A DNA stretch of 64,000 nt from assembly GCA_036257195.1 (NCBI GenBank), contig DATAFX010000093.1, positions 2,308-66,307 of the forward strand, read 5' to 3'. The position numbers and the translations under genes are program-made. Positions within the stretch are counted from its first letter, which is position 1, and each line of letters begins with the position of its first letter. Positions 8,140-39,648 of this stretch are shown here, in pieces. The notes beneath the pieces are model-generated. The model had not been told where the DNA came from. It did no database searches and was given only the letters and a program-made list of their open reading frames with translations. Origin of the DNA: Candidatus Methylomirabilota bacterium (lineage in GTDB: Bacteria > Methylomirabilota > Methylomirabilia > Rokubacteriales > DASRDR01).

Positions 8140-8903
8140 CGGGGGGCCATCCGGATGGCGCCGTCCAGGCGGATGGTCTCGCCGTTCAGCATGGGGTTCT
8201 CCACGATGTGGCACACCAGCGCGGCGTACTCCGCCGGGCGGCCGAGCCGGCTCGGGAAGGGGACCTGCCGGGCGAGGGACTGACGGGCGGGCTCGGGGAG
8301 CATCCCCATGAGCGGGGTGTCGAACAGGCCGGGAGCAATCGTGCAGACGCGGATGCCCACCTCGGCCAGATCCCGCGCGATCGGGAGCGTCATCCCGACG
8401 ATCCCGCCCTTCGAGGCCGAGTAGGCCGCCTGGCCGATCTGACCGTCGAAGGCCGCCACCGACGCCGTGTTGACGATCACGCCCCGCTCGCCGTCCTCGC
8501 CCGGTGCGTTCTGCGCCATCCGCGCCGCCACGAGCCGGATGCAGTTGAAGGTGCCGATAAGGTTCACCTGGATGACGAAAGTGAAGGACCCGAGGTCGTG
8601 CGGGCCGCGCTTGCCGTGCGTCTTCTCGGCGATGGCAACCCCCGCGCAGTTGACGAGTCCGTGGATCGGCCCGAAGCGCCCGGCCGCCACATCGACCGCG
8701 GCGCCCACGTTGTCGGCGTTCGTCACGTCACAGGGCGTGAACAGGGCGTGCGGGCCCAGTTCGGCGGCCACCTGGACGCCAGCCGACCGCTCGAGATCCA
8801 GGATGGCCACGCGTCCGCCGTGGCTCAGGAGCCGCTCGACGGTGGCCCGACCGAGTCCGGATGCGCCACCCGTCACCAGGAACGTTGAGCCGTCGATCTT
8901 CAT
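8136..8903 (-). CDS. Short-chain dehydrogenase/reductase, 3-hydroxyacyl-CoA dehydrogenase type-2 (HSD17B10)-like
   Basis: 255 aa from [26 protein letters not shown].... It has the TGxxxGxG Rossmann motif, a YSASK catalytic motif and NTAS. The upstream 75 aa of the ORF are junk. Confidence 0.9.
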
Positions 8904-25644: not shown

Positions 25645-26775
25645 ATGGCCGGCCTGATCCCCAAGACCGCGTTCATCGGAATCGAGCACGTCGCCCATCT
25701 CGCGACGGGTGGCGAGGCGCCCGTCCTCCGCGCCCACCTCGAGGCGGCCACCCGGTTCCTCCTCGACAAGGGCGACGGCATGCCGGGGCGCGAGCGCTTC
25801 TTCGCGACGGCGGACGGGACCCGGGCAGCCCTCGCGGCCCGCCTGGGCGGCCGCCCCGAGGACGTCTCGTTCCTGGGCAGCGCGTCCGAAGGCCTCCACG
25901 TGGCGTCCGAGGGCATCGACTGGCGTCCGGGTGACAACGTCGTCGTGGGCCAGAGCGAGTTTCCCTCCGTCCTCGTCGCATGGCAGCGGCTCCGTCCGCG
26001 CGGGGTCGAGGTGCGCGCGGTCGGCCGCGAGGCGGTGGTGACCCACGAGGAGATCGCCGCCGCGGTCGATGGCCGCACGCGGGCCATCGCGGTGAGCCAC
26101 GTCGGCTATCTCACGGGCGCCCGCCACGACCTCGGCCGCCTGCGTGGCCTGGCCGACCGGGCTGGGGCGCGCCTGATCGTCGACGCTTCCCACGCGCTCG
26201 GCGTCGTCCCTGTCGACGGGAGGCTGTGCGACGTCGTCGTCGCCTGCTGCTACAAGTGGCTCCTGGCGGTGCACGGCGTCGGCGTCTTCTACGTCAACAG
26301 CCGGCGCTGGCCCGGCCTGGCGGCCCCCTGGGTCGGCTGGCACTCCACGGACCGCGAGGATGACTGGCGGCGTCGCACGGAGTACCGCCTGCGGGAGGAC
26401 GGCTCGCGGTTCGAGGCGGGGAATCCCCCGTTCCTGCCGGTCTACATCCTGGAGAGCGCGCTGCGGACGCTCGACGGCCTCGATCCCCGGGCGGTGGAGG
26501 CGCACGTGCTCGGGCTCGGCGGAACACTCCGGGCCGGGCTGGCGAAGCTCGGGCTTCCGGTCCTGACGCCCGAGGCGCCCCAGGAGCGGGCAGGCAACAT
26601 CGTGTTCGCGACCGACCGCTGGGCGGACGTCGAGCGCGCCCTCCGGGCAGCCGGCGTGCTCGTCTGGGCCGGCGATGGGCGAGTGCGCCTGTCGGTGCAC
26701 GCGTACAACGACGAGGCCGACGTCGAACGCGCGCTCGCCGTGCTCGGGGACCTGACGGCGCGCGACGCTGTCTGA
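25645..26775 (+). CDS. Aminotransferase class V / cysteine-desulfurase-like PLP enzyme
   Basis: 376 aa starting MAGLIPKTAF.... Class V fold features are DASHALG and CYKWL (PLP-Lys region). Confidence 0.8.
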   Translation: MAGLIPKTAFIGIEHVAHLATGGEAPVLRAHLEAATRFLLDKGDGMPGRERFFATADGTRAALAARLGGRPEDVSFLGSASEGLHVASEGIDWRPGDNVVVGQSEFPSVLVAWQRLRPRGVEVRAVGREAVVTHEEIAAAVDGRTRAIAVSHVGYLTGARHDLGRLRGLADRAGARLIVDASHALGVVPVDGRLCDVVVACCYKWLLAVHGVGVFYVNSRRWPGLAAPWVGWHSTDREDDWRRRTEYRLREDGSRFEAGNPPFLPVYILESALRTLDGLDPRAVEAHVLGLGGTLRAGLAKLGLPVLTPEAPQERAGNIVFATDRWADVERALRAAGVLVWAGDGRVRLSVHAYNDEADVERALAVLGDLTARDAV

Positions 26776-29086: not shown

Positions 29087-29305
29087 CGCGCCGCCTCCTC
29101 CGGTCCCCGGTCCGGGCCCGTCCTACTGAACCACCCCCCGCCAGTTTCCGCAAGCCGACGGCCGAGACTCCCCAGTGCTGCGACAAATTGACGGAAACCC
29201 CCGGGAGTGGCGGCAATTTGGCGTGCTCCGCGTTTTGTCGTACCATCGGGCGATGCAGGGTGGCGGTACGGGCTTCGCTCGGGCGTCCCGAGAGGCGGCT
29301 CCAGC

Positions 29306-30826
29306 ATGCACGCTCCGGTGATCGATCTCCTCCGGGGAGGACTCCCGGCGCTCCTGGCCCTCGTGGCCGCGATCGTCGCGATACGGATCGTCTGCCGGCG
29401 GTCGACGCTCCGCCGTCTGTCGTTCGCGCTCTCCCTCATTGCCCTCACCGGGAGCGTCGCCCTCTTCCGGGCGCTGACGCCGGCCGAGGCGCCGCTCCTG
29501 GACCCCTACCTGCGCTTCCTCGTGCTGTTCTCCCTCGCCTACGGGGCGTTCAAGGTCGTCGAGGTGCTGGTCGTCGACCTCCTTCCCGGGCGGCGCGGCT
29601 CCCGCCAGGCGCCGGCGATCCTCCGCGACGTGGTCGCGGTCGTAATCGGGAGTTTCATCCTCGTGGTCCTGCTGCGGGCCAGCTTCGGCGTGGACGTTGC
29701 GGCGCTGGTCGCCACCTCGGCCGCCCTGTCGATCGTCCTCGGTCTGGCGCTCCAGGAGACGCTGTCGAACCTCTTCGCCGGGCTGGCCCTCATGCTCGAG
29801 CGTCCCTTCGAGCCCGGGGACTGGATCCAGATGGGGGACCTGATCGGCCAGGTCCAGGAGGTGAGCTGGCGCGCGGTGCGCCTCAAGCTCATCCGGCAGG
29901 AGGACTTCCTCGTCGTGCCGAACAGCGTGGTGGCCAAGTCGCACATCGTGAACATGAGCCAGCCCCTGCCGGTCCACGGCCACGCGATCGAGATCGGCGC
30001 TCCCTACTCGGAGCCGCCCGGCCGCGTGCGAGAAGCCCTGATCGAGGCGGCGCTCGACGTGGGCGGCGTCCTCCGCCAGCCGCCGCCTCGGGCCCGGATC
30101 GCCCGGTTCGACACCTCCGCGATCGTCTACCAGCTGGTGTACTACCTGGACGACTACCCGAGGATCCACGACATCCAGGGCGAGGTGCTGTCGCGCTGCT
30201 GGTACGCCTTCCGCCGCCATGGCATCGAGATCCCGTTCCCGGCCGCGGACGTGTTCTGGCGCGACGCGGTCAAGGTGACCGACGACGCGCGCGCGGCCGA
30301 GGTGCGCCGGATCGCCGACCTCCTGAGGGGGGTCGAGTTCCTCGAGGCGCTCACGTCCGAGCAGCTCGAACACCTCGCGTCGGAGGCGCGGATCGTGCCG
30401 TACCCGGTGGGCGGAGCGGTGGTACGCCAGGGAGACGAGGGAGATAGCCTGTTCCTCGTGGCTGGGGGGCGCGTCGAGGTCTCGGTGCACGCCCCGACCG
30501 GCGGAGCCGAGCGCCGCCTGGCCACCCTGGGCCCGGGAGACTACTTCGGCGAGATGTCGCTGCTGACCGGAGCGCCGCGTTCGGCGACGATCCGCGCCGT
30601 GGAGGAGACCGGCCTCGTGGTCCTCCGCAAGGAGGCCCTGCGGCCCCTGCTGGTTGCCGACCCGACCGTTCTCGAGCGCCTCTCCAAGACCCTGGCGCGC
30701 CGGCAGGCCGAGCGGGACGACGCGATCCATCGCGCGGCGACATCCGAGTACGAGGGGCCCGGAGCCGATCGGGCCGGCCACTTGCTCGGGCTGATGCGGC
30801 GGTTCTTCGGACTCATGGGTGGTTGA
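29306..30826 (+). CDS. MscS-family mechanosensitive channel with C-terminal cyclic-nucleotide-binding domain (bCNG-type)
   Basis: 3 TM helices plus an MscS beta-domain (GDWIQMGDLIGQVQEVSWRAVRLK...NMS), then a CAP-family cNMP domain (GDYFGEMSLL...RSATIRA). Confidence 0.85.
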   Translation: MHAPVIDLLRGGLPALLALVAAIVAIRIVCRRSTLRRLSFALSLIALTGSVALFRALTPAEAPLLDPYLRFLVLFSLAYGAFKVVEVLVVDLLPGRRGSRQAPAILRDVVAVVIGSFILVVLLRASFGVDVAALVATSAALSIVLGLALQETLSNLFAGLALMLERPFEPGDWIQMGDLIGQVQEVSWRAVRLKLIRQEDFLVVPNSVVAKSHIVNMSQPLPVHGHAIEIGAPYSEPPGRVREALIEAALDVGGVLRQPPPRARIARFDTSAIVYQLVYYLDDYPRIHDIQGEVLSRCWYAFRRHGIEIPFPAADVFWRDAVKVTDDARAAEVRRIADLLRGVEFLEALTSEQLEHLASEARIVPYPVGGAVVRQGDEGDSLFLVAGGRVEVSVHAPTGGAERRLATLGPGDYFGEMSLLTGAPRSATIRAVEETGLVVLRKEALRPLLVADPTVLERLSKTLARRQAERDDAIHRAATSEYEGPGADRAGHLLGLMRRFFGLMGG

Positions 30827-30859
30827 CGGCACGCGCTGACCGCGGCCGGAGGAGATTGG

Positions 30860-32275
30860 ATGGCGGAGGAGCAGAAGACGGACGAGAAGGAGCCGGTGGG
30901 CCTGCGACTGCCGCTCAAGCTCAAGCTCACCCTCCTGATCACGACCCTCCTCGTGCTGACGGTACTGCTCGTGAGCGTATTCCTGGTGCGGCAGGAGCAG
31001 GAGAGCCTCACGAACGAGATGACGAAGCGAGGCCGCACGATCGCCAGGGACCTCGCGAACGCGTCGAAGAATCCGATCCTGTCCAACGACGACCTGACCC
31101 TATCGCTGCTGGTGCAGGATGCCATGAAGGACCCTGATGTCGTCTACGTGGTCTTCGTGGACGCCGACGGCAAGGTGGTGGCGCATCCGGACCTCTCGCA
31201 GATCGGCCTGCGTGTCCAGCGGGCGAATGGCTTGCCGATGGCCGTTGGCGAGACCCAGGTCACGCAGTACGTCGACCCGAAGCACGGCAAGCTCATCGAC
31301 TTCGCGGTCCCGCTGGTGTTCAGCAAGGTATCGGTCGGGTCGCTGTATCTCGGGTTCAGCCGGAAGCCGATCGACCAGGCCACCGCCACCGCGCGGAACT
31401 CGACGATCGTCATCAGCGCCGCCATGATCGTCGTCGGGGTCCTCGGGGCGCTGGGCCTGGCCACCGTGCTGTCGGGGCCCGTGATGCGCCTGGTCGAGGG
31501 CACCCGCGCCGTCGCGGCCGGGAACTTCCAGATCCACCTGCCGGTTACCTCTCGGGACGAGATCGGCGCGCTGACCGAGTCGTTCAACCAAATGGCGAAG
31601 AACCTTCGCGAGAAGGAGATGATCAAGCGGGCGTTCACGCGCTACGTCGCCCGCCAGGTCGTCGACGAGATCCTGAAGGATCCCGAGAAGCTCGCCCTGA
31701 AAGAGGAGCGCCGGGACGTCACCGTGCTCTTCTGTGACATGCGAGGCTTCACGTCCCTGGCCGAGCGCCTGTCGCCGGAAGAAGTCGTCGGCGTGCTCAA
31801 CGACTTCTACACGCTGATGGTGGACACCACGGCGAAGAACGACGGCATCGTGGACAAGTTCCTCGGCGATGGGGTCATGGCCATCTTTGGGGCGCCGATC
31901 GTCCACGAGGATCACCCCACTCGCGCTGTGAAGACCGCGATCGCGATGCAGGCAGGGGTGGCGGAGCTGTCGCGGAAGCGGGCGCGGGACGGCAAGGACC
32001 CGATTGCGGTCGGCATCGGTGTGAGCGCCGGCGAGGCCGTGGCAGGGACGGTCGGTACCGAGGATCGGATGGAGTACACCGTTATCGGCGACAGCGTCAA
32101 CTTGGCGGCGCGGCTCGAATCCAACGCCAAGCCGGGCCAGATCCTGATCAGCCAGCGCACCTTCCAGCGGGTGGACGGCGTCGTGAATGTCCGCACGCTG
32201 GGCGTCATCCGGGTGAAGGGCAAGGAGGAGCAGGTCGAGGTCTACGAGGTCCTCGGCTTGGCGCAGGGAGCGTGA
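30860..32275 (+). CDS. Class III adenylate/guanylate cyclase with periplasmic sensor and HAMP domain
   Basis: TM, extracytoplasmic domain, second TM, HAMP (LTESFNQMAKNL) and a cyclase domain (VTVLFCDMRGFT...FLGDGVMAIFGAP...TVIGDSVNLAARLES). Confidence 0.9.
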   Translation: MAEEQKTDEKEPVGLRLPLKLKLTLLITTLLVLTVLLVSVFLVRQEQESLTNEMTKRGRTIARDLANASKNPILSNDDLTLSLLVQDAMKDPDVVYVVFVDADGKVVAHPDLSQIGLRVQRANGLPMAVGETQVTQYVDPKHGKLIDFAVPLVFSKVSVGSLYLGFSRKPIDQATATARNSTIVISAAMIVVGVLGALGLATVLSGPVMRLVEGTRAVAAGNFQIHLPVTSRDEIGALTESFNQMAKNLREKEMIKRAFTRYVARQVVDEILKDPEKLALKEERRDVTVLFCDMRGFTSLAERLSPEEVVGVLNDFYTLMVDTTAKNDGIVDKFLGDGVMAIFGAPIVHEDHPTRAVKTAIAMQAGVAELSRKRARDGKDPIAVGIGVSAGEAVAGTVGTEDRMEYTVIGDSVNLAARLESNAKPGQILISQRTFQRVDGVVNVRTLGVIRVKGKEEQVEVYEVLGLAQGA

Positions 32276-35428: not shown

Positions 35429-35806
35429 GTGAGCGATCCGATCCCGGCCTGGGCGTGGGTCCTGATCGAGGACTACGTGGACCGGTCCCTCGAGGGTCGC
35501 GGTACGGCGAGCCCGACGGCGATGGAAACGCTGGCCGAGGTGGCGCGACTGTGGCCCGATCTGTCGTGCACGATTCTGGTCCAGGAGCCATGGCAGGGTA
35601 CGGTCCGCTTCAAGCGGCTTCTCCGCCTGCGCGGTGACGCGATGCGGCCGTTCCTGGAAGCCCCGGAGGCGTTCATCCGGGACCGCTTCGGCGGCGGGAA
35701 GTTCAAGCTGAACATCCACCACGGCATGCACTTCGTGAACACCAAGAACTTCAAGCCCGAGGGTCCGGCGCGCTGGCAGGCGGTCCCCGAGCTCGTGGAG
35801 GACTGA
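35429..35806 (+). CDS. Hypothetical protein
   Basis: 125 aa with balanced composition (MSDPIPAWAWVLIEDYVDRSLEGRG...). GTG start. First of three tightly packed unknown ORFs. Confidence 0.5.
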   Translation: MSDPIPAWAWVLIEDYVDRSLEGRGTASPTAMETLAEVARLWPDLSCTILVQEPWQGTVRFKRLLRLRGDAMRPFLEAPEAFIRDRFGGGKFKLNIHHGMHFVNTKNFKPEGPARWQAVPELVED

Positions 35807-35807
35807 C

Positions 35808-36068
35808 ATGGCCGAGGACGCGACGCGACGGCTCCTAAGGGTCTTCGGCATCGCGGTAACGGAATGCGAGGACGCACTCGACCTCGTGGAGGTCACCCTC
35901 CGCGACCAGGGCCCGGGCGCGGCGTCCGGTCCGTCGCTGGAGGCCTACGAGCGGGCTGCCCGCGAGCTCGAGACCCGCTGGACGGAGGTCGAACGCCTGA
36001 TCCAGGGCTATCAGTCCCGGGCGCGCGCGGCGCTCCTGGCGGGCCTCCGAACGCGCGGCGTCGCCTGA
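35808..36068 (+). CDS. Hypothetical small protein
   Basis: 86 aa. The ATG lies 2 nt after the upstream stop. Helical composition. Confidence 0.4.
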   Translation: MAEDATRRLLRVFGIAVTECEDALDLVEVTLRDQGPGAASGPSLEAYERAARELETRWTEVERLIQGYQSRARAALLAGLRTRGVA

Positions 36069-36081
36069 GGCGGGGGTATCC

Positions 36082-36501
36082 GTGACCCGCGATCGTTTGC
36101 TCCGCCCGCGCTGGCTGGTTTGGTTCCTGATCGCCTGGAGTTTCGCCATCGCCTCGGTTCCGCGCCTGTCCGAGGCCGCGCCGCTCCCCCCGATCCGAAG
36201 CGCCGATGCCTCCGGTGACCGCGGGGCGATCCACGCGCTGCTCGAGCGTCGCCTCGTTCGCGCGCAGCTCGCCGCCCTCGGGGTGTCGGAGGCGGAGGCC
36301 GCGAAGCTCTGGGAGCGCCTCACCCCGGCCGAGCGCGCGGAGCTGACGGCGCGAGCGGACGAGCTCGGCGCGGGCGGCGATCCAGTCGCCGCGGGGATCG
36401 CGATCGCCATCGTCGTGGCGATGTTCGTGATCCTCGCCCTCGAGCTCATCGGCCGCCGCGTCATCTCCCAGCCGGAGGGAGCCTCCGGGGTCAAGCCTTG
36501 A
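36082..36501 (+). CDS. Hypothetical exported/membrane-anchored protein
   Basis: 139 aa with an N-terminal signal-like helix (WLVWFLIAWSFAIASVP) and a C-terminal TM (AAGIAIAIVVAMFVILALELIG). Confidence 0.45.
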   Translation: MTRDRLLRPRWLVWFLIAWSFAIASVPRLSEAAPLPPIRSADASGDRGAIHALLERRLVRAQLAALGVSEAEAAKLWERLTPAERAELTARADELGAGGDPVAAGIAIAIVVAMFVILALELIGRRVISQPEGASGVKP

Positions 36502-36593
36502 AGGGGGTCAGGCCTTGACTTTGACTCCCCGACACTCTGGCGGAGATGGCCGATGGGCGAGATGCATGGAAGACAAAGTCAAGGCCTGACCCC
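36490..36593. promoter_or_regulatory. Reiterated near-palindrome GTCA(A)GGCCTTGAC forming a 20-bp perfect inverted repeat around the start of the downstream gene
   Basis: GGGGTCAGGCCTTGACTTTG (36504-36523) is the exact reverse complement of CAAAGTCAAGGCCTGACCCC (36574-36593). A third degenerate copy GTCAAGCCTTGAA sits at 36490-36502. TTGACTTTGACT is a tandem repeat. The putative ATG at 36553 lies in the 50-nt spacer. Confidence 0.6.
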
Positions 36594-37413
36594 GAGGCGC
36601 GATGCGAGCGGGGTGCTGGTCGCGGTGCCGGCGCGTCCCACGCGCATCGTGTCGCTCGTCCCGAGCGTCACGGAGCTCCTGTTCACGCTCGGGCTGGACG
36701 ACCGGATTGCCGGCGTCACCGTTTTCTGAACCGAGCCACGGGCCAGGGTGGCCCGGGTCTCCAAGGTCGGCCGCGAGAAGGATCCCGACCTCGCCCGCAT
36801 CCGGGCGCTGACGCCAGATCTGGTCGTCGCCAACATGGAGGAGAACCGCCGCGACGTGGTGGACGCCCTGCGCGGGGCGGGCGTCGCGGTGTGGGTCACG
36901 TTTCCTCGGACCGTGGCGGAGGGAATCGAGCTCGTCCGGGAACTCGGGGCGCTGACCGCGGCGGAGGCGGCGGCCGAGCCGCTGGCCCGGTCACTCGAAA
37001 CGACCCGCGCGACGGTCCTGGCCCGCATGGCCGGGCGATCCCGGGCCCGCGTGTTCTGTCCGATTTGGCGCGGCCCCTACATGACGGTCAACCGGGACAC
37101 CTACGTCCACGACATGCTGGTGACCTGCGGTGGCGAGAACGTGTTCGCCGATCAGACGGCGCGCTACCCGACGGTGACCCTCGACGCCGTGCGCTCCGCC
37201 GCGCCGGACGTCATCCTGCTGCCGGACGAGCCCTTCCGGTTCCGCGCCGCGCACCGGGCGGACTTCGCGCCGCTGGCCGACGTGCCGGCCGTCCGGGCCG
37301 GTCGGATCCACTTGGTGGATGGCAAGCTACTCAGCTGGTACGGGCCGCGGATCGCCGAGGCGCTGGAGCGGCTACCCGCCCTCCTTTCCGGAGGCGCCCG
37401 GCTCGATCGGTGA
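36553..37413 (+). CDS. BtuF-like (PBP type III fold; cd01144-like) binding protein with in-frame TGA at 36727-36729. Candidate selenocysteine codon or disrupted pseudogene. No signal peptide.
   Basis: Frame from ATG 36553: MGEMHGRQSQGLTPRRDASGVLVAVPARPTRIVSLVPSVTELLFTLGLDDRIAGVTVF-TGA-TEPRARVARVSKVGREKDPDLARIRALTPDLVVANMEEN...GGENVFAD.... This is collinear with BtuF (RVITLSPANTELAFAAG..VGVS.YSDYP...). The TGA falls where homologues have FC(D/N/T)YP. The downstream part is the listed ORF 36748..37413. Confidence 0.55.
36739..36755 (+). other. GC hairpin CGGGCC-AGGGU-GGCCCG starting 10 nt after the in-frame UGA. Candidate bacterial SECIS-like element.
   Basis: A perfect 6-bp stem with apical loop AGGGU. 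It is extensible with a bulged A (gcc-a-cgggcc / ggcccg-ggu). The spacing matches fdhF-type SECIS geometry. Confidence 0.3.
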
Positions 37414-37906
37414 GGGCGAGTGGCTCGCGGGCGGCCCGACGGCGCGCCTCGAGCACGAGCTCGACCTCCACCGGCATCCCGCCCGCCAGGCCCTGAACCG
37501 ACCGGAGGCACGCGACAGGAGGGGCTCCCGCCGGCAGGACCGCCGCCAGGAGCGCGAGACTGTCCGCGAGGAGCGCCGGCGTGAGGCCGTCGGACGTCAC
37601 GCTCGAGACGAAGCCCACGAGAACCACGCAGCGCAGATGATCCAGCGAGCCGACCGACGCGCGGGCGGCTGCCAAGGCGTTCTGCGTGGCCAGGTGCAAG
37701 GCGCGGGCGGTGTCCTCGATCGACACCGAGCGGCCCATGCGGCCCCGGTGGGCGAGCCGGCCGTCCCGCTCAGGATCGTGCCCGGCGACGAACAGCCGGG
37801 CGCCGGAGCGCACGACGGGCACGTACTGATCCGTCGGAGGCGTCGGGGCGATTCCCGCTAGGGGATCGGGCCGCGCGGGACGCCGACGCGGCCTGGCCGA
37901 GGCCAT
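37331..37906 (-). CDS. RidA/YjgF/TdcF-family protein (paralog 1)
   Basis: The core ...YVPVVRSGARLFVAGHDPERDGRLAHRGRMGRSVSIEDTARALHLATQNALAAA...GGMPVEVELVLEA matches the RidA fold. The Arg-rich N- and C-terminal tails are of doubtful reality. The 3' end overlaps the convergent gene. Confidence 0.65.
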   Translation of the reverse strand: MASARPRRRPARPDPLAGIAPTPPTDQYVPVVRSGARLFVAGHDPERDGRLAHRGRMGRSVSIEDTARALHLATQNALAAARASVGSLDHLRCVVLVGFVSSVTSDGLTPALLADSLALLAAVLPAGAPPVACLRSVQGLAGGMPVEVELVLEARRRAAREPLALTDRAGRLRKGGRVAAPAPRRSAARTS

Positions 37907-37915
37907 CGATTGGGC

Positions 37916-38458
37916 CTAGCCGCGCCGCCCGCGGAACGGACGCCGCGGTCCCCGGGCGGGGGAGGCCAGGCGCCGGCCGCTCCGCGCGCGCGGCGCCGTG
38001 CCGGCGACCTCTAGGATCATCTCGATCTCCACCGCCATCCCCAAGGGAAGGGAGCCCATGCCGACCGCGGAGCGGGCGTGCCGGCCCGCGTCGCCGAAGA
38101 CCTCCACCATGAGGTCGGAGAACCCGTTGATGACCTGCGGATGGTCGGTGAAGTCGTCGGCGCACTGCACCATGCCCAGGACCTTGACGACGCGCCGGAC
38201 CCGGTCGAGGCTACCGAGGGTGTGTCGGATGGTGGCGAGGAGGTTCAGGCCGGTCAGACGGGCCGCGGCCTGGCCCTGTTCGATCGTGAGCTCGCGGCCG
38301 ACTCTGCCCCGGTGCACGATGCGCCCGTCGCTCACCGGGCCGTGGCCGGAGAGGAACAGAAGGCGCCCGGACCGGGCGGCCGTCACGTAGGTCGCCATCG
38401 GCCGGAGCGGGTTGGGGAGCTCGATGCCCAGGGCCTCGAGACGCGCCTCAGCTCCCAT
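37916..38458 (-). CDS. RidA/YjgF-family protein (paralog 2)
   Basis: From MGAEARLEALGIELPNPLRPMATYVTAARSGRLLFLSGHGPVSDGRIVHRGRVGRE...MAVEIEMILEV. CAT at 38456-38458. The upstream part of the 426-aa ORF is rejected. Confidence 0.75.
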   Translation of the reverse strand: MGAEARLEALGIELPNPLRPMATYVTAARSGRLLFLSGHGPVSDGRIVHRGRVGRELTIEQGQAAARLTGLNLLATIRHTLGSLDRVRRVVKVLGMVQCADDFTDHPQVINGFSDLMVEVFGDAGRHARSAVGMGSLPLGMAVEIEMILEVAGTAPRARSGRRLASPARGPRRPFRGRRG

Positions 38459-38505
38459 CGTGGCTCCTTGCTGACCGGAACGGTGCGTGGCTCGTGGCTC
38501 GTGAG

Positions 38506-39648
38506 TCAGGAGGCTCGCGTGGCCAGGACGCCGCGCCGTCCGCGCAGGGCTCCCAGCACCCCGAGGACGAGGACCGCAAAGGCGAGATACGTGACGGTGT
38601 CGCCCGCGCGGTCGGCCAGCCACCCGCAGAGTGGCGCTCCAACGGCGTGCCCCAGCGCCCATGCCAGGTTGGCGAGTGCGATCGCCAGAACGCCGTCGAG
38701 ACCGGCGGCATCCGCGGCCCGGGTGAGGAGCGCCATCCCGGGCACGAGCGTGGCACCGAACGTGATCGCCGCCAACACGACGAGCCCGGCCACCAGCCAC
38801 GGGGCCTCCGCCCAGGCCAGGCCGGCGAGCACGGCGATCGACACGGCCAGCCCGGCGACGATCGGCGCGAGCGCGCCCCGTCGGTCCGCCCAGCGGCCGA
38901 GCAGGGGATGCACGATGGCCTCCAACGCGGCGGCCGCGGCGTAGAGGGCGCCCAGCTGTCCGGCACTCCAGCCGCGCGCGTCGAGCGAGAGGGGCGCCAG
39001 GACGCCGAGGAGAGCGAAGAGAAGCGGCGCCAGCACGATCAGGCCAAGCGGCACCCAGAGCGAATGGATACGGAGGGCGGCGATCATCGTGACGCTTCCG
39101 GACTCCGCCGTCGGCTCCGGCAGGGTCACCACCCTCACGCCCAGCGCGATGCACGCCAGGGCCACAGTGACGAAGGCCGGACCGGTGCCGAACCACGCGG
39201 CGGCCGCGCCCAGCACCGGACCGAGGAACGCCCCGACCACCGCGGCGGAGACCGCGAAACCGATCAGCTCACCGCGTCGCTCGGGCGGTGCGGTGCGCGC
39301 GAGCCAGCCGACCGCCGCGGTCCAAGAGCACGCGCTGCCAACACCGGCGCCGAACCGCGTGAGGACGAGGAGTGTCCACTTCCCGGCCAGCCCGAAGAGG
39401 ACGCTCGTGCCCGCCGTCAGGCCGAGACCCAGGAGCAGCGTCGGCCGGAGGCCCAGACGGGCCGCCAGGAGTCCGCTCGGGAGCGCCGCCACTAGGACGC
39501 CGGCCGCGAATGCGCCGGCCAGGATGCCGACGGCGCTCTTCGACAGGCCCAGCGCGGCAGCGTAGCTGGGAAGCAGCGGCGAGAGGACAGCGAAGAACAC
39601 CGTGTCGACGAGGACCACCGCGGCGACGAGCACCAGGAGCCGGCGCAC
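38506..39648 (-). CDS. MFS transporter
   Basis: 380 aa, 12 TM helices, GTG start (MRRLLVLVAAVVLV...). Confidence 0.85.
   Translation of the reverse strand: MRRLLVLVAAVVLVDTVFFAVLSPLLPSYAAALGLSKSAVGILAGAFAAGVLVAALPSGLLAARLGLRPTLLLGLGLTAGTSVLFGLAGKWTLLVLTRFGAGVGSACSWTAAVGWLARTAPPERRGELIGFAVSAAVVGAFLGPVLGAAAAWFGTGPAFVTVALACIALGVRVVTLPEPTAESGSVTMIAALRIHSLWVPLGLIVLAPLLFALLGVLAPLSLDARGWSAGQLGALYAAAAALEAIVHPLLGRWADRRGALAPIVAGLAVSIAVLAGLAWAEAPWLVAGLVVLAAITFGATLVPGMALLTRAADAAGLDGVLAIALANLAWALGHAVGAPLCGWLADRAGDTVTYLAFAVLVLGVLGALRGRRGVLATRAS

Follow-up and report, generated by a model that had tools for sequence, protein, structure and literature searches.

Two catalogues of selenoproteins, published in 2022 (PMC9312934; representative RUA21600.1) and 2026 (PMC13188914; representative MDE0719563.1), list a selenoprotein named 'Cobalamin-binding protein BtuF (cd01144)' with the motif CxxU. 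Both credit Peng et al. 2016 for it; the text and Table S3 of that paper (PMC5029168) contain no mention of a BtuF selenoprotein family. SaoB and SaoX (NF040727 and NF040735; Haft & Gwadz 2023, as listed in PMC13188914) are further selenoproteins among the substrate-binding proteins of ABC transporters. For the phylum Methylomirabilota, use of selenocysteine (Sec) has been reported in the form of Sec-type [NiFeSe] hydrogenases (PMC13582414) and of a MAG with 63 predicted selenoprotein genes (PMC13188914). The first-pass annotation of the locus described here had assumed that no selenoprotein of the BtuF family had been described, which is wrong in view of the two catalogues.

We analyzed a BtuF-like gene of a soil Methylomirabilota bacterium within a window of 64 kb (the whole stretch of DNA that was studied; 71.6% G+C). 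Judging from sequence comparison, we estimate a probability of roughly 90% that positions 36553-37413 form a single intact gene for a 286-residue selenoprotein with the TroA-like/BtuF-like class III substrate-binding-protein fold, and that its internal UGA encodes Sec. As had been proposed, the TGA at 36727-36729 was found in the frame of ATG 36553, the first start codon 3′ of an in-frame stop, and the window sequence and its translation confirmed that the frame resumes beyond it and stays open up to TGA 37411-37413 (287 codons in all). The joined protein matched PF01497 over residues 32-255, i.e. across the TGA (E = 1.2e-18; 67.8 bits, cut-off 27.5), as well as the NCBIfam family NF038402 'helical backbone metal receptor' (182.9 bits, cut-off 30). 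The ORF annotated in GenBank (HEX2501184.1) takes as its start a GTG, in fact the Val codon within the loop of the hairpin following the TGA, and this database entry was very probably wrongly shortened at the UGA. Coordinates of the main features are given in Table 1.

Table 1. Features of the BtuF-like locus (positions refer to the window).
Feature	Position	Strand	Basis and remarks
Three small ORFs (125 aa, 86 aa, and 139-aa DUF6627 membrane protein) directly upstream	35429..36501	+	Conserved neighbourhood
Probable Shine-Dalgarno sequence GGAG	36542..36545	+	7 nt 5′ of the start codon; read from the sequence, function putative
N-terminal coding part of the BtuF-like selenoprotein gene, 58 codons	36553..36726	+	Encodes the motifs RDASG and RIVSLVPSVTE
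In-frame UGA, predicted Sec codon, residue 59	36727..36729	+	Cys/TGA column in relatives
SECIS-type hairpin inside the coding sequence	36733..36761	+	Fold, inverted repeat, comparison with Sec forms
C-terminal coding part, 227 codons plus stop TGA 37411-37413	36730..37413	+	Translation, PF01497, BtuF alignment
221-aa ORF as in GenBank, HEX2501184.1, 'helical backbone metal receptor'	36748..37413	+	ORF list; 100% identity to P0011

Thousands of relatives were retrieved by a protein search, the majority of them belonging to Methylomirabilota (Rokubacteria). A set of 160 related loci was compared (80 GTDB species representatives and 80 metagenome contigs, from GTDB genomes and JGI metagenomes), and the aligned codon was placed by tblastn; 158 of the 160 loci span the site. 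The codon was TGA in 40 and TGC or TGT in 118 of these 158 loci, whereas TAA, TAG, or a non-Cys sense codon occurred in none of them. Orthologues carrying either a Cys codon or a TGA with a hairpin at this place, which had been suggested as a check, do exist. Every full-length homologue (~250-290 aa) had Cys at the TGA column, within the motif V-T-x-F/Y-C-[TSV]-[EQH]-P. The conserved Cys named in the first-pass annotation is thus invariant among full-length homologues, but the motif given there, FC(D/N/T)YP, was inaccurate, the actual one being F/Y-C-[TSV]-[EQH]-P. About 35 other entries of 218-223 aa, among them the product of the window gene, begin with [MV]AR[TV]PKVG directly after the Cys/TGA column, as expected of gene callers that meet the same TGA. 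In public databases, the window gene and at least 40 relatives are filed as fragments of this length under the names Fe3+-hydroxamate or metal-receptor binding protein.

The survey bears directly on the possibility that a sequencing or assembly error turned TGC or TGT into TGA. Although the window stems from a metagenome-assembled genome, the TGA recurs in assemblies made independently by many projects, namely in 10 species representatives of GTDB and in 30 contigs from JGI or other metagenomes, and each TGA locus also possesses the hairpin specific to Sec forms together with the NGG/GGU choice of codons described below; the chance of such an error is next to nil. A recent nonsense mutation would imply that the gene is a pseudogene, or that the 221-aa C-terminal fragment alone is made as annotated in GenBank. 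Gene callers and PGAP do end or start ORFs at the TGA, and Sec machinery was not seen in the window, both of which speak for such a mutation. It is nonetheless hardly credible, given that 40 other loci have the same TGA, although their proteins may be as little as 57% identical (range for Sec forms relative to the window protein, 57-84%), that a covarying hairpin accompanies it, and that the fragment would be without beta1-alpha1-beta2 of the fold. Furthermore, no second lesion was found anywhere: residue 59 was the sole position with an internal in-frame stop in any related locus, and the 29 codons 5′ of the TGA contained neither a stop nor a frameshift in 35 of 35 unique Sec forms. These upstream codons were constrained like the downstream ones (pN/pS of Sec forms 0.53 for the 29 codons before and 0.42 for the 50 codons after the TGA), so that both flanks are intact and under constraint and the decay that a pseudogene would display was not observed among the orthologues.

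An NJ tree of 147 unique proteins showed interleaved Sec and Cys forms, with a Cys root and at least nine Sec/Cys switches; on this evidence, Sec and Cys would have been exchanged several times in the lineage. TGA was also the usual stop in the window, ending most other genes, and hence the genetic code is not reassigned. Taken together, the codon survey, the tree, and the open and constrained flanks exclude a reassigned code as well as a pseudogene and a sequencing error. The latter two had been named as alternatives in the first-pass annotation and are effectively excluded by the 40 versus 118 loci, the covarying hairpin, and the lack of decay.

A second Cys at position -4 relative to Sec/Cys (residue 55 in the window protein), forming G-C-T-x-[FY]-C, was noted in 47 of the 118 Cys-form loci but never among the 40 Sec-form loci. 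Judging from this distribution, a CxxxC pair and a single Sec may be alternative solutions.

The SECIS of E. coli fdhF, studied in the Bock laboratory, reportedly has a minimal upper stem-loop ~11 nt after the UGA, with a GGUC loop, which binds SelB. Downstream of the TGA in the window, the predicted perfect hairpin CGGGCC-AGGGU-GGCCCG was recovered at 36739-36755 (5′ arm 36739-36744, loop 36745-36749, 3′ arm 36750-36755). Its core stem begins at the 10th nt past the TGA, and both folding and the inverted repeat allowed its extension with a bulged A. By itself, this hairpin did not exceed chance expectation for DNA of 72% G+C (z = -0.84; 42 of 200 shuffles folded as well). Since the fold of the single sequence is unremarkable, the significance of the hairpin has to come from comparative data alone. 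A search of Rfam yielded nothing relevant, either for the window at the gathering score or for the hairpin at E ≤ 10.

In the comparison, each of the 41 Sec forms had a hairpin at the corresponding place, with its start 11-15 nt past the U of the UGA, and 17 sequence variants of it were distinguished. The encoded residues shift along with the arms (RARVAR, RARVAA, RGRVAS, REAVAS, and RDQVVS). As the MAFFT alignment placed the stems in two registers, a single consensus structure was abandoned; pairs were instead tabulated per sequence for 31 unique Sec sequences, with stem positions numbered outward from the loop and with slid partners and Cys forms as controls. Pairing was found in 31/31 sequences at positions 1-4, in 28/31 at position 5, and in 24/31 at position 6, values that are inflated at the inner positions because the best register was taken for each sequence, as the Cys control shows. 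The same stem search in Cys forms gave 37-48% pairing at positions 5-6, and sliding the 3′ partner by one base reduced pairing from 0.76 to 0.46-0.49. Compensatory double changes (C-G/G-C and G-C/A-U) were present at stem positions 2-7.

Sec and Cys forms also differed in local folding energy. The local MFE for nt +9 to +34 was -12.3 kcal/mol in Sec forms versus -6.2 in Cys forms (Mann-Whitney p = 2.7e-13, in a test that, like the other Sec-versus-Cys statistics, treats related sequences as independent). The folding energy of the whole region (42 nt) did not separate the two forms (p = 0.41); the position-specific hairpin alone does. Synonymous recoding of the same peptides produced weaker hairpins (mean z = -1.6). 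The loop contained GGU in 31/31 Sec forms as opposed to 24/100 Cys forms, and the Arg codon supplying the loop GG was NGG in 20/20 Sec forms as opposed to 9/20 Cys forms. The hairpins resemble the fdhF SECIS in being short, G+C-rich stem-loops within the coding sequence that start 8-12 nt past the UGA, and in having an invariant GGU in a loop of 3-5 nt, which is exactly GGUC in the REAVAS-type forms. They differ from it in that the stem has 4-7 bp and the bulge is not consistently placed, and binding of SelB is putative here. The recurrent TGA/Cys pair and the covariation in the hairpin thus lend strong support to the proposal that the UGA encodes Sec in place of a conserved Cys and that the hairpin behind it is a SECIS of the bacterial type.

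One Cys form (L104; TGC codon at 1489) was observed to carry a perfect 7-bp SECIS-like hairpin, GGGGGCC-CGGGT-GGCCTCC, within the next ~35 nt. In the tree it is grouped with Sec forms, as if Sec had recently been replaced by Cys and the SECIS left behind as a fossil.

A motif search of six-frame translations detected no selA, selB, or selD in the 64-kb window and ~1.85 Mb of related loci, and ARAGORN found no tRNA-Sec in the window and all 160 loci. As the machinery was absent from these stretches, we infer the use of Sec in this genome from the codon and hairpin evidence together with the literature on the phylum. That the machinery is itself deduced leaves some room for a recoding of the UGA other than by Sec, i.e. 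by a suppressor tRNA, by hairpin-stimulated near-cognate insertion of Trp or Cys, or by termination and re-initiation giving two chains that assemble. For re-initiation, many Sec forms do contain a GTG in the loop of the hairpin; the REAVAS-type Sec forms, however, lack it (GCG GTC), and consequently there is no conserved restart codon. Further points against such recoding are that the aligned residue is always Cys, a signature of Sec, that TGA terminates most other genes of the window, and that the position of the hairpin and its GGU loop match the minimal fdhF SECIS said to bind SelB. We therefore consider recoding without Sec very unlikely. According to the favoured Sec reading, the UGA would be decoded by the standard bacterial route, in which SelB, recruited by the small stem-loop that starts 9 nt past the UGA and has GGU in its loop, would deliver Sec-tRNA(Sec). 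The Cys orthologues would do the same job with sulfur.

ARAGORN called two tRNAs in the window, a tRNA-Ser(cga) at 8362-8445 (-) and an odd 94-nt tRNA-Thr(cgt) at 26023-26116 (-). Even with the threshold relaxed to E ≤ 10, neither matched a tRNA covariance model, and each is contained in an ORF with high GC3. They are probably false positives in G+C-rich DNA, which would leave no credible tRNA in the window. Scanning the window for in-frame TGA codons with coding signal on both sides revealed no second selenoprotein gene, position 36727 being the only one detected. The same scan over all loci, with a cross-check for Cys/TGA pairs, returned one weak candidate of doubtful frame (L015, near 13642 on the + strand). 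Its TGA aligns with Cys in 27 other loci. As its peptide resembles the translation of an antisense frame, it is probably not a second selenoprotein.

An AF2 model was built on a Cys form (P0001) that is 84% identical to the window protein (pLDDT 93.6, pTM 0.89). Among the five best Foldseek hits (TM 0.75-0.89), the best PDB matches were the heme-binding proteins RhuT and BhuT and the B12-binding protein BtuF. The part before Sec forms a beta-hairpin, beta1, alpha1, and beta2 of the N-lobe (pLDDT about 95 in this Cys homologue). Because the 58 residues preceding the UGA supply beta1-alpha1-beta2, a 221-aa product would have an incomplete N-lobe core. The Sec/Cys position falls in the loop following strand beta2 of the N-lobe. 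By sequence, the closest solved structure was E. coli BtuF (E about 1e-19), to which the C-terminal part was aligned over residues 26-228. Residue 59 aligns with the Ser of BtuF Y-S-D-Y-P, and the directly preceding Tyr50 of BtuF is, as we assume, a B12-contacting residue. This alignment would place residue 59 at the mouth of the ligand cleft, where it may contact the bound ligand or act as a nucleophile, a role read from the BtuF sequence alignment and the presumed BtuF ligand contacts, not from coordinates. Another Cys of the protein, Cys164, is nearly invariant. No signal peptide was found; the N-terminus is without a hydrophobic region, and the model shows residues 7-21 with confidence as a beta-hairpin. 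Apparently, the protein resides in the cytoplasm and acts outside any ABC importer, and we infer that it binds a ligand there, or works as an enzyme, with the help of the Sec/Cys in its cleft.

Compared with E. coli BtuF (PDB 1N2Z, 1N4A), the window protein shares the two-lobe class III fold with its long backbone helix (TM 0.75-0.88). Differences include (i) Ser in BtuF at the Cys/Sec column of the family; (ii) the lack of a signal peptide; and (iii) the lack of btuCD-like neighbours. Trp66 of BtuF aligns with the conserved motif G-R/G-E-K-D/N-P of the family. The score against the NCBIfam BtuF equivalog NF002894 was 85.9 bits, below the cut-off of 234, and the protein is not a BtuF equivalog. 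Like SaoB and SaoX, which are described as transporter binding subunits with Sec as a possible metal ligand (PMC13188914), it is a predicted selenoprotein with a binding-protein fold. The motifs of these two are, however, CUxxT and UxP, transporter genes are absent near the window gene, and no NCBIfam match of the window protein to NF040727 or NF040735 was obtained at E ≤ 0.01.

With the catalogued BtuF (cd01144) selenoprotein, the window protein has in common the domain family by name, a single Sec, and the status of a computational prediction only. The catalogued motif CxxU is not matched by any of the 41 Sec forms: all share [VIL]-T-x-[FY]-U, in which position -3 is Thr, and Cys occurs at neither -3 nor -4. 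The catalogue representatives RUA21600.1 and MDE0719563.1 did not appear among the cluster members that were looked up. Possibly, though this is a rather doubtful reading, [VIL]-T-x-[FY]-U-x-E-P in the loop after beta2 marks a different site or subfamily from the CxxU BtuF, and the protein may be a cytoplasmic, transporter-independent member of the fold with Sec/Cys as a direct ligand or nucleophile for a tetrapyrrole or metal in its cleft.

Conserved neighbours of the gene comprise a convergent RidA/YjgF gene, a NUDIX gene, and the three small upstream ORFs. No ABC permease or ATPase or other transporter was present among the 12 most conserved neighbour families. The RidA-like gene was the most conserved neighbour (88 loci), and the ORFs of 125, 86, and 139 aa adjoin the gene in 46, 24, and 39 related loci, respectively. 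Pfam assigned only DUF6627, to the 139-aa protein, which has a C-terminal hydrophobic segment; the 125-aa and 86-aa proteins remained without a match. The upstream ORFs and the BtuF-like gene possibly constitute an operon and may be co-transcribed. In the window, two tandem genes of the RidA/YjgF family (37331-37906 on the - strand and the C-terminal part of the ORF at 37916-39196 on the - strand) are convergent with the BtuF-like gene and meet it at its 3′ end.

We also noted a 26-nt inverted repeat, GGGGTCAGGCCTTGACTTTGACTCCC, at 36504-36529 and 36568-36593 (92% complementary, 38 nt between the arms), which brackets the start codon and the ribosome-binding site of the BtuF-like gene. Its 18-nt core occurs at these two window sites only (0.01 expected), and a third similar copy, CGGGGTCAAGCCTTGA, at 36486-36501 ends the upstream DUF6627 gene. 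The motif GGGGTCAGGCC... likewise forms part of an inverted repeat 5′ of the gene in three Cys-form loci (L001, L002, and L003) and one Sec-form locus (L086). The repeat could be a translational or operator element. Elsewhere in the window, a MscS-type channel with a cyclic-nucleotide-binding domain adjoins a Cache/HAMP adenylate or guanylate cyclase (29207-32272 on the + strand), possibly a cNMP-gated channel pair unrelated to the selenoprotein gene.

These results do not overturn current understanding, and a BtuF-type selenoprotein had already been catalogued. They are of value for annotation: the window gene and its relatives are filed as fragments of 218-223 aa, while the real product would be a protein of ~280 aa with Sec. 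The family also offers a natural series, comprising at least nine Sec/Cys switches, a Cys form that still bears the hairpin (L104), and amino acids that co-vary to keep the RNA stem, with which predictors of selenoproteins can usefully be calibrated for soil genomes of high G+C. Should residue 59 be a cofactor ligand in a cytoplasmic binding-protein fold, a use of selenium outside redox motifs would be added. Were the reading of a cytoplasmic Sec/Cys ligand true, selenium would have a role not of the thioredoxin type in a fold that otherwise serves transport only.
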